NCBI RefSeq assembly: GCF_016026235.1
Contig: NZ_CP065613.1
DNA: 64,000 bases
DNA from: Escherichia coli
GTDB lineage: Bacteria; Pseudomonadota; Gammaproteobacteria; Enterobacterales; Enterobacteriaceae
Strand: one strand, 5' to 3'
The position numbers and the translations under genes are program-made. The first letter of the stretch is position 1. The number at the start of each line of letters is the position of its first letter. Shown here in pieces: positions 29,815-30,756 of the stretch. The notes below the pieces were generated by a model. It had not been told where the DNA came from, did no database searches, and saw only the letters and a list, made by a program, of their open reading frames with translations.

Positions 29815-30054
29815 TCAAAAGAGTGATGGTTGCTCCGGTTCGTCTGATGACGCTGGCTTATTTGCACGTAATTTGCGCATTAATCGCTGCCGACAAAGGC
29901 GCAGCACCTCTTGTTTTTCGCCATCGCTCATTTTATTCCAGTTAAAACGCTCATCCCGGCTTCGAAAACAGCCGCGACAAAACCCGCGTTCGTCAGACTG
30001 GCAAATTCCCCGGCACGGGCTCTGGACGGGAAAGAACTCTAATTGCTCCGCCAC
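29815..30054 (-). CDS. ydhL: DUF1289-family small Cys-rich protein
   Basis: 79 aa from GTG at 30054 (AEQLEFFPVQSPCRGICQSDERGFCRGCFR...); the longer 136-aa listed ORF has an unsupported N-terminal extension. Confidence 0.7.
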   Translation of the reverse strand: MAEQLEFFPVQSPCRGICQSDERGFCRGCFRSRDERFNWNKMSDGEKQEVLRLCRQRLMRKLRANKPASSDEPEQPSLF

Positions 30055-30126
30055 TTCGCCCTCCTCAAATAAGATTATTACCATTATTGAAGCTGTTAAT
30101 GCCCAAAGTAGCAACTTTGCTTGCAC

Positions 30127-30142
30127 TAGACCGACTGGTCTA
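30127..30142. promoter_or_regulatory. NemR operator (TAGACC-GACT-GGTCTA inverted repeat)
   Basis: Perfect 6-bp inverted half-sites 15 bp upstream of the nemR start. Confidence 0.65.
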
Positions 30143-30156
30143 CTACACTCCAGCGC

Positions 30157-30756
30157 ATGAACAAACACACCGAACATGATACTCGCGAACATCTCCTGGC
30201 GACGGGCGAGCAACTTTGCCTGCAACGTGGATTCACCGGGATGGGGCTAAGCGAATTACTAAAAACCGCTGAAGTGCCGAAAGGGTCCTTCTATCACTAC
30301 TTTCGCTCTAAAGAGGCGTTTGGCGTTGCCATGCTTGAGCGCCATTATGCCGCATATCACCAGCGACTGACTGAGTTGCTGCAATCCGGCGAAGGTAACT
30401 ACCGCGACCGCATACTGGCTTATTACCAGCAAACACTGAACCAGTTTTGCCAACATGGAACCATCAGTGGTTGCCTGACAGTAAAACTCTCTGCCGAAGT
30501 GTGCGATCTGTCAGAAGATATGCGTAGCGCGATGGATAAAGGCGCTCGCGGCGTGATCGCCCTGCTCTCGCAGGCTCTGGAAAATGGCCGTGATAGCCAT
30601 TGTTTAACCTTTTGTGGCGAACCGCTGCAACAGGCACAAGTGCTTTACGCACTATGGCTTGGCGCGAATCTGCAGGCCAAAATTTCGCGCAATTCCGAGC
30701 CACTGGAAAACGCGCTGGCACATGTAAAAACCATTATTGCGACGCCTGCCGTTTAG
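30157..30756 (+). CDS. nemR: TetR-family electrophile-sensing repressor NemR
   Basis: 199 aa; N-terminal TetR HTH; precedes nemA-gloA. Confidence 0.95.
   Translation: MNKHTEHDTREHLLATGEQLCLQRGFTGMGLSELLKTAEVPKGSFYHYFRSKEAFGVAMLERHYAAYHQRLTELLQSGEGNYRDRILAYYQQTLNQFCQHGTISGCLTVKLSAEVCDLSEDMRSAMDKGARGVIALLSQALENGRDSHCLTFCGEPLQQAQVLYALWLGANLQAKISRNSEPLENALAHVKTIIATPAV

Follow-up and report, generated by a model that had tools for sequence, protein, structure and literature searches.

Gene layout at the ydhL–nemR locus

We analysed a 64-kb stretch of Escherichia coli DNA (64,000 nucleotides, hereafter the window) that carries the gene pair ydhL and nemR. The genes sodC, ydhF and ydhL lie on the minus strand and are followed by nemR, nemA, gloA and rnt on the plus strand. 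As the first-pass annotation had recognised, ydhL and nemR are divergent; nemR opens with the ATG at 30157, and 102 bp separate it from ydhL. A 601-base query around ydhL and nemR matched 5,425 of 5,426 complete E. coli genomes, with 100% identity to FDAARGOS_943 and 99.8% to O157:H7 strains, and EHEC EDL933 differs from the window by a single base within the ydhL–nemR spacer. For comparison we assembled 80 species-level loci from Enterobacterales, all from species other than E. coli. The features of the locus are as follows.

28870..29766, minus strand: ydhF, an aldo-keto reductase gene (Pfam Aldo_ket_red) directly downstream of ydhL
29815..30054, minus strand: ydhL coding sequence, 79 aa plus stop, DUF1289 (open reading frame, translation, Pfam PF06945)
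29818..29832, minus strand: C-terminal motif QPSLF, residues 75–79, clamp-binding-like (orthologue conservation)
29968..30015, minus strand: Cys4 core CRGICQSDERGFCRGC, residues 14–29 (cysteines invariant)
30031..30045, minus strand: N-terminal motif QLEFF, residues 4–8, clamp-binding-like (family conservation)
30052..30054, minus strand: ydhL GTG start codon (a start codon in 80/80 aligned loci)
30060..30065, minus strand: ydhL Shine-Dalgarno sequence AGGAGG, 5 nt before the GTG (from sequence)
30079, minus strand: ydhL transcription start, base A, 25 nt upstream of the GTG
30082..30084, minus strand: nearest in-frame upstream ATG, not used (without Shine-Dalgarno sequence; absent from most species)
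30086..30091, minus strand: ydhL −10 hexamer TTCAAT, ending 7 nt before the EHEC Cappable-seq start
30109..30114, minus strand: ydhL −35 hexamer TTGCTA, 17 bp from TTCAAT, conserved as TTGCnn
30121..30126, plus strand: nemR −35 hexamer TTGCAC (from sequence; TTGCAT/A/C conserved in 53 loci)
30127..30142, no strand: NemR operator TAGACC-GACT-GGTCTA, the single perfect match in the 64-kb window
30144..30149, plus strand: nemR −10 hexamer TACACT, one base after the palindrome and 7 nt before the ATG
30157..30756, plus strand: nemR coding sequence, TetR family (Pfam TetR_N and TetR_C_13)
30223..30225, minus strand: TTG that opens a 136-aa open reading frame (29815..30225), antisense inside nemR; not a gene start

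Start codon and promoter of ydhL

The first-pass annotation had assigned ydhL a GTG start and a 79-aa DUF1289 product, and both are borne out by the open reading frame and its translation (GTG 30054..30052 to TGA 29817..29815, minus strand). Across the 80 species loci, the codon aligned to YdhL residue 1 is GTG in 69, ATG in 9 and TTG in 2; a wider tally of 72/9/2 adds two E. coli records and the window. The aligned codon thus interchanges among GTG, ATG and TTG, whereas a valine codon would drift among GTN, which marks it as a start codon. All 80 loci carry a Shine-Dalgarno-like motif at −4 to −16 of this codon, and every orthologue is exactly 79 aa long. In 44 of the loci no alternative in-frame start lies between the ydhL start and the nearest upstream stop, which is only 1–11 codons away in many of them, and 68 have no in-frame ATG upstream at all. 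A search of 1.84 billion representatives yielded 1,316 matches, and the distant homologues mostly begin with MxQLExF at their own N-termini, so that the GTG of ydhL coincides with the family N-terminus.

Variation within E. coli follows the same boundary. K-12 differs from the window at four positions inside the ydhL coding sequence, all of them synonymous third-position changes, and at 30068 and 30102, between the GTG and the ydhL −35, where both changes would be nonsynonymous in an extended frame. The TRAINSPOTTER N-terminomics supplements contained no YdhL entry. Taken together, the comparative evidence strongly supports initiation of ydhL translation at GTG 30054..30052. This start is already the accepted reference annotation, which the first-pass annotation restates: RefSeq WP_000840481.1 (FDAARGOS_943, EDL933 gene RS12715) and K-12 b1648 (NP_416165.2) annotate the identical 240-nt GTG gene, with no difference in coordinates or start from the window, and O157 strains encode exactly the YdhL protein of the window.

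ydhL is transcribed from a weak sigma-70-like promoter of its own, TTGCTA-N17-TTCAAT. Cappable-seq in EHEC EDL933 places its transcription start 25 nt before the start codon (PMC10469882 Table S5 sheet 3), and the RegulonDB start for K-12 lies 12 nt before the GTG, at window position 30066 (PMC10469882 Table S5). The pattern TTGNNN-N17-TT[CG]AAT precedes ydhL in 64 of the 80 loci, including loci without a neighbouring nemR; in 60 of these 64 the −10 ends 25–34 nt (mostly 29–32) before the ydhL start codon, and in seven more loci the −10 is a variant, TTCACT or TTGACT. The sequence of the spacer between the two hexamers is not conserved across loci, and the −10 is without the usual A at position 2. 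A consensus promoter scan of 29700–30400 returned no promoter; we set this negative aside because the transcription-start data and the conservation show real, off-consensus promoters. The 2016 Cappable-seq supplement listed no matching positions. By eye, sigma-54, sigma-E, sigma-32 and MarA/SoxS-box elements were also considered for the ydhL promoter and rejected, their partner elements being absent or not conserved. The ydhL and nemR promoters stand back to back, with −35 hexamers 6 bp apart and transcription starts about 78 bp apart.

These transcription starts bear directly on the upstream extension of the ydhL frame. The first-pass annotation had described an ATG-initiated 136-aa open reading frame with a poorly conserved extension. 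The poor conservation stands: gene-caller versions of 81–125 aa from different genera have nothing in common before VAEQLEFF. The ATG does not, as the frame opens with TTG at 30225..30223; it runs past the end coordinate of the first-pass annotation, crosses the nemR promoter and continues antisense into the nemR coding sequence. In-frame ATGs at 30084, 30177 and 30192, respectively 10, 41 and 46 codons 5′ of the GTG, would give proteins of 89, 120 and 125 aa. A longer YdhL isoform of 89–136 aa, made from one of these ATGs or the TTG besides or in place of the 79-aa form, could draw on the E. coli frame, which stays open over the 65 codons preceding the GTG, and on the 125-aa or 89-aa versions called in some genome annotations. 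Every upstream start codon, however, lies 5′ of both mapped ydhL transcription starts. Even the nearest ATG, at 30084, has its A at −30, and it is not in the ydhL mRNA because both mapped starts are downstream of it. The extension itself is unrelated between genera, broken by stops in most species and antisense to nemR promoter and coding sequence, and the family N-terminus falls at the GTG. We therefore consider a longer isoform hardly credible, and this reading largely refuted.

The nemR operator and the regulation of ydhL

The inverted repeat that the first-pass annotation saw between ydhL and nemR is indeed present, as the perfect palindrome TAGACCGACTGGTCTA at 30127–30142. By estimate, a perfect 12/12 match to the 12-base palindromic pattern is expected about 0.004 times per 64 kb; a match with up to two mismatches is expected 0.96 times in 64 kb and is not significant alone. 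The palindrome corresponds to TAGACCnnnnGGTCTA, which we take to be the published box of NemR (YdhM) (Umezawa et al. 2008). The order of nemR −35, box and −10 is kept in 53 loci of other species. In all 53, a TAnnnT −10 hexamer lies 6–8 nt before the nemR ATG, and in none of them does a Shine-Dalgarno-like motif precede nemR. In nearly all 66 loci that have a box, that of Yersinia pestis included, it lies 13–15 nt from the ATG of nemR, with outliers at 10–19 nt.

Published transcript ends agree with this layout. SMRT-Cappable-seq places the K-12 nemR transcription start at 1726022, next to the coding-sequence start at 1726023, and the distance from transcription start to ATG is 0 in EHEC Cappable-seq and 2 in RegulonDB (PMC10469882). 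Since the transcript begins at or within 2 nt of the ATG, the nemR mRNA is leaderless; the missing Shine-Dalgarno sequence and the spacing of the −10 are likewise those of a leaderless gene. nemR is thus a conserved leaderless gene, with an operator that takes up its promoter spacer from −30 to −15, a layout supported by the genome-wide transcription-start tables. A title-level literature search for nemR and leaderless returned no title pointing to E. coli nemR.

An operator in the promoter spacer is the standard geometry for repression by occlusion, and NemR bound to the palindrome blocks RNA polymerase at nemRA-gloA. Mutations in the operator derepress nemRA-gloA (PMC5297802; PMC8127710), and mutations in the NemR site or the ydhL–nemR spacer have been selected for resistance to glyoxal or honey, an effect attributed to nemRA-gloA (PMC5297802; PMC8127710). 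By its placement the operator belongs to the nemR promoter and not to ydhL.

The first-pass annotation had further suggested that NemR may also affect ydhL, an idea to which the cross-species comparison lends no support: the box keeps its offset from nemR, and its distance to ydhL varies. Across species, 69–239 nt separate the end of the box from the ydhL start, and 9 to about 52 nt separate it from the ydhL −35. nemR adjoins ydhL in 48 of the 80 loci. In 19 others, 0.75–2 kb of other DNA or genes intervene and the box stays with nemR, and the remaining 13 have neither nemR within 2.5 kb nor a box. In these 32 loci, where no nemR adjoins ydhL, a box never precedes ydhL, and most of them still keep the ydhL promoter. 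That promoter thus persists even where nemR and its box are missing or lie kilobases off, which leaves NemR control of ydhL unsupported and speaks against a conserved role. Relative to the mapped ydhL start in E. coli, the box spans −48 to −63 and lies upstream of the core promoter, which would make ydhL either no NemR target or a weakly affected one. Members of the NemR regulon would be expected to have the palindrome overlapping the core promoter and the operator conserved with the gene across species; ydhL shows neither.

Could NemR, from the shared palindrome, nevertheless repress or modulate ydhL in E. coli, making the spacer a bidirectional electrophile-responsive region? The back-to-back promoters and the short distance, 12 bp between box and ydhL −35 in Escherichia, Citrobacter and Salmonella, speak for it, and a steric or alpha-CTD effect on the −35 at this spacing is conceivable. 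A methylglyoxal-induced RNA polymerase ChIP-chip region takes in the 5′ part of ydhL, spanning 60% of the gene together with nemR and nemA (PMC3739934 supplement); the assay is not strand-specific, however, and signal over ydhL is expected as spread from the nemR promoter. NemR senses HOCl, and a screen of the ASKA library found that overexpression of ydhL gave resistance to H2O2 and HOCl (PMC8228696). An earlier SELEX tally, moreover, gave NemR two sites and four targets, with the genes unnamed (PMC4797297). Against these points stand the variable distance between box and ydhL promoter, the 19 loci in which the box travels with nemR, the 32 that lack it beside ydhL, and the NemR literature consulted, which describes a single-target regulator and names nemRA-gloA as the sole target (PMC5934670). 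We regard such regulation of ydhL as unlikely. The firmer neighbour of ydhL is ydhF, which follows it directly in 70 of the 80 loci (gap 29–143 nt, mostly about 50), compared with 48 for nemR. This linkage raises the possibility that ydhL heads a ydhL–ydhF(–sodC) stress operon, with transcription reading through from ydhL into ydhF and some factor reading the conserved non-consensus promoter CTTGCnn-N17-(G)TCTTCAAT. The off-consensus bases of that promoter are kept across genera, and no terminator was detected between ydhL and ydhF. Yet ydhF has a transcription start of its own at window position 29789 (K-12 1725655, SMRT-Cappable-seq); the K-12 SMRT-Cappable-seq transcript of ydhF–sodC begins in the ydhL–ydhF spacer, and no transcript containing ydhL appears there. 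Homologues outside Enterobacterales stand alone in unrelated neighbourhoods, and no regulator was identified. An operon of this kind is a real possibility, though one we lean against.

The preferred reading is of a 79-aa gene that starts at GTG and has its own promoter, next to an operator placed in the nemR spacer, and we hold this account as a whole with high confidence. On the comparative evidence, ydhL is most likely not a NemR target, or is at most weakly affected. The start codon and the nemR operator were both already known. What the comparison contributes is a multi-species basis for the ydhL start and for a promoter layout in which a leaderless nemR faces an autonomous ydhL promoter, together with reasons to expect no control of ydhL by NemR. 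As far as checked, the literature describes neither the conserved promoter of ydhL nor the terminal motifs of the DUF1289 family, which are considered below.

Terminal motifs of YdhL and likeness to known systems

YdhL matches Pfam DUF1289 (PF06945) over residues 12–57, with 69.3 bits against a cut-off of 27 (E=2.4e-19; profile positions 1–46 of 47). A family alignment of 66 sequences shows no variation at cysteines C14, C18, C26 and C29, and AF2 models residues 11–60 at a pLDDT of about 90 or higher. Searches of NCBIfam and PHROGs found no family matching YdhL, and the libraries searched gave no functional assignment, Pfam listing it as a DUF and NCBIfam without a match. Among solved structures, searched by sequence, the sole match was a spurious one to a designed repeat, and a phage search gave only weak matches to the Cys core from jumbo phages. 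The neighbourhoods of homologues in Vibrio, Pseudomonas-like bacteria and Neisseriaceae were unrelated contexts that offered no functional clue. Overexpressed ydhL elongates cells (bioRxiv 10.1101/2020.07.14.202911) and scored in both H2O2 and HOCl resistance screens (PMC8228696).

Conservation extends beyond the Cys core to both ends of the protein. At the N-terminus, the 66-sequence alignment has an invariant Q4 and an F8 conserved to at least 90%. Among 100 diverse DUF1289 representatives with intact N-termini, 80 carry Q-x-x-[LMIF]-F before the Cys core (shuffled sequences: mean 1.7, maximum 7), and in 78 of these 80 the Q falls at residue 2–5. The same pentapeptide occurs within the last eight residues of 29 of the 100, against a shuffle mean of 0.09. 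In the tail motif, D (40), S (7) or G (3) stands at the third position, L (38) or M (14) at the fourth and always F at the fifth, giving the family tail consensus Q[LF]D[LM]F. All 80 Enterobacterales orthologues end in QP[ST]LF, and their mean identity is 0.64 over the linker (residues 61–72) compared with 0.94 over residues 73–79. Both motifs sit in flexible ends, with AF2 pLDDT of 67 for residues 1–10 and 55 for residues 71–79 versus 89–94 for the core. In longer homologues the motif recurs two or three times along acidic, proline-rich tails (for example ...PPQFDLF..., ...QATLF... and ...DNQIDMFS); one cluster of such multi-copy homologues contains a Pseudomonas sp. MAG protein. Variants across the family include QLSLF, QADMF, QLDLF, QLNLF and QLGLF.

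Pentapeptides of this kind are the binding motifs of the beta sliding clamp, as in Pol II (QLGLF), Pol III alpha (QADMF), UmuC (QLNLF) and the N-terminal QLSLPL of Hda, with the consensus QL[SD]LF. In parts of the clamp literature, QLSLF, QADMF and QLDLF occur together with the term clamp-binding motif. Two hallmarks of clamp binding are found in DUF1289, namely a conserved QL[SD]LF-like pentapeptide and its position in a flexible terminal segment. As the terminal motifs match the clamp-binding consensus, we propose that both ends of YdhL bind the sliding clamp. That YdhL, and the DUF1289 family generally, would be an unrecognised beta sliding-clamp (DnaN) binding protein is a tentative proposal drawn from motif sequence, to which we give a little less than an even chance. 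An AF2 model of YdhL-(GGGGS)8-DnaN, joined by a 40-residue linker, did not model the clamp itself (mean pLDDT 52.7, domain II <50) and weighs neither for nor against binding. At title level, a literature search for ydhL and clamp returned unrelated titles only.

Under this proposal, YdhL would combine a helix with a small, metal-binding Cys4 domain and carry QLEFF and QPSLF on either side of them as clamp-binding motifs. Having two motifs, a single molecule could fill both pockets of a clamp dimer. The GTG start matters here because only the 79-aa form puts QLEFF at the N-terminus. The cysteine cluster might make clamp binding responsive to oxidants or electrophiles, which would fit the stress-defence neighbourhood as well as the elongation and the H2O2 and HOCl tolerance seen on overexpression. 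A Cys4 domain with a conserved clamp-binding-like motif at either end thus provides a functional hypothesis for an uncharacterised protein. If true, the bacterial clamp interactome would gain a small redox-capable member, and the filamentation seen on ydhL overexpression would be explained.

Set beside known systems, the locus combines familiar parts. Its operator is that of nemRA-gloA, with the autorepression of the TetR family: the same perfect palindrome lies between the nemR −35 and −10, whereas for ydhL the site falls outside the core promoter, at a distance that varies between species. Leaderless mRNAs are known for TetR-type repressors, examples in E. coli being those of Tn1721 tetR and lambda cI. 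The nemR transcript resembles these in starting at or within 2 nt of the AUG without a Shine-Dalgarno sequence. YdhL, in turn, resembles the binders of the beta sliding clamp, the DUF1289 family carrying Q-x-x-[LM]-F at the extreme N- and C-termini with extra copies in disordered tails.

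Promoter and leader of ydhL

The 79-aa DUF1289 protein YdhL is encoded at 29815-30054 (-), upstream of which lies a promoter with an off-consensus sequence:
30086-30114, minus strand: ydhL promoter, CTTGCnn-N17-(G)TCTTCAAT

The second position of its -10 element is T, not A. Across many genera among the 80 species-level Enterobacterales ydhL loci (L003-L082), the off-consensus bases are retained while the spacer varies, a pattern of sequence conservation that suggests selection beyond plain sigma-70 recognition.

The leader itself differs between species. Escherichia albertii and E. 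whittamii (loci L004 and L006) carry an insertion of ~120 bp between the -10 element and the Shine-Dalgarno sequence, which places the promoter ~150 nt from the start codon; the inserted segment resembles an ERIC/IRU repeat. In E. albertii, the ydhL start codon is ATG, not GTG. Separately, an inverted repeat, GTGAC-GTT-GTCAC, is conserved within an enlarged ydhL-nemR spacer in Atlantibacter, Franconibacter and one Citrobacter locus (L032, L042, L049, L050, L053), and is absent from E. coli. This repeat may serve as an operator of another regulator.

A TraDIS essentiality call for ydhL, and the downstream genes

In one TraDIS study, ydhL is among the genes that only TraDIS calls essential (PMC5821084), and the call has been repeated in an in-silico target paper. 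The gene's length of 240 bp may have produced this call artefactually, or the fitness effect may be real. Some DUF1289 proteins (the Aeromonas-type homologues P0144 and P0220) carry a bacterial SH3_3 domain as a C-terminal fusion, and the annotation given to cluster members in Aeromonas is "SH3 domain protein".

Transcription of the next two genes begins close by:
29789 (K-12 position 1725655), minus strand: ydhF-sodC transcription start, inside the 48-bp ydhL-ydhF spacer
29796-29801, minus strand: ydhF promoter TATACT, 7 nt before the start at 29789

With this start and spacing, the ydhF promoter overlaps the 3' end of ydhL. The ydhF reading frame is intact in the window (28870-29766, 298 aa); in E. 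coli EDL933 (L083, 13924-14820), RefSeq lists the gene as a pseudogene with an internal stop. sodC is another case of start-codon choice in the ydhL neighbourhood: the mechanical ORF (28268-28840, minus strand) runs to 190 aa from an upstream ATG, and the RefSeq gene spans 522 nt (173 aa) and starts MKRFSLAIL.

5' end of the nemR mRNA and the NemR box

On the opposite strand, the nemR mRNA is apparently leaderless and translated as such:
30121-30159, plus strand: nemR promoter to start codon, -10 TACACT ending 7 nt before the ATG

Published transcription starts lie 0-2 nt from the ATG, and the start codon in the window has no Shine-Dalgarno sequence. The same layout is kept in 53 of 53 box-bearing loci from the comparison set (L003-L082).

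The NemR box (30127-30142) has the core GACC-N4-GGTC, which is also the core of the RutR box. Given this common core and the inclusion of nemR in the RutR regulon list (PMC5934670), two TetR-family proteins, NemR and RutR, may share the NemR box.
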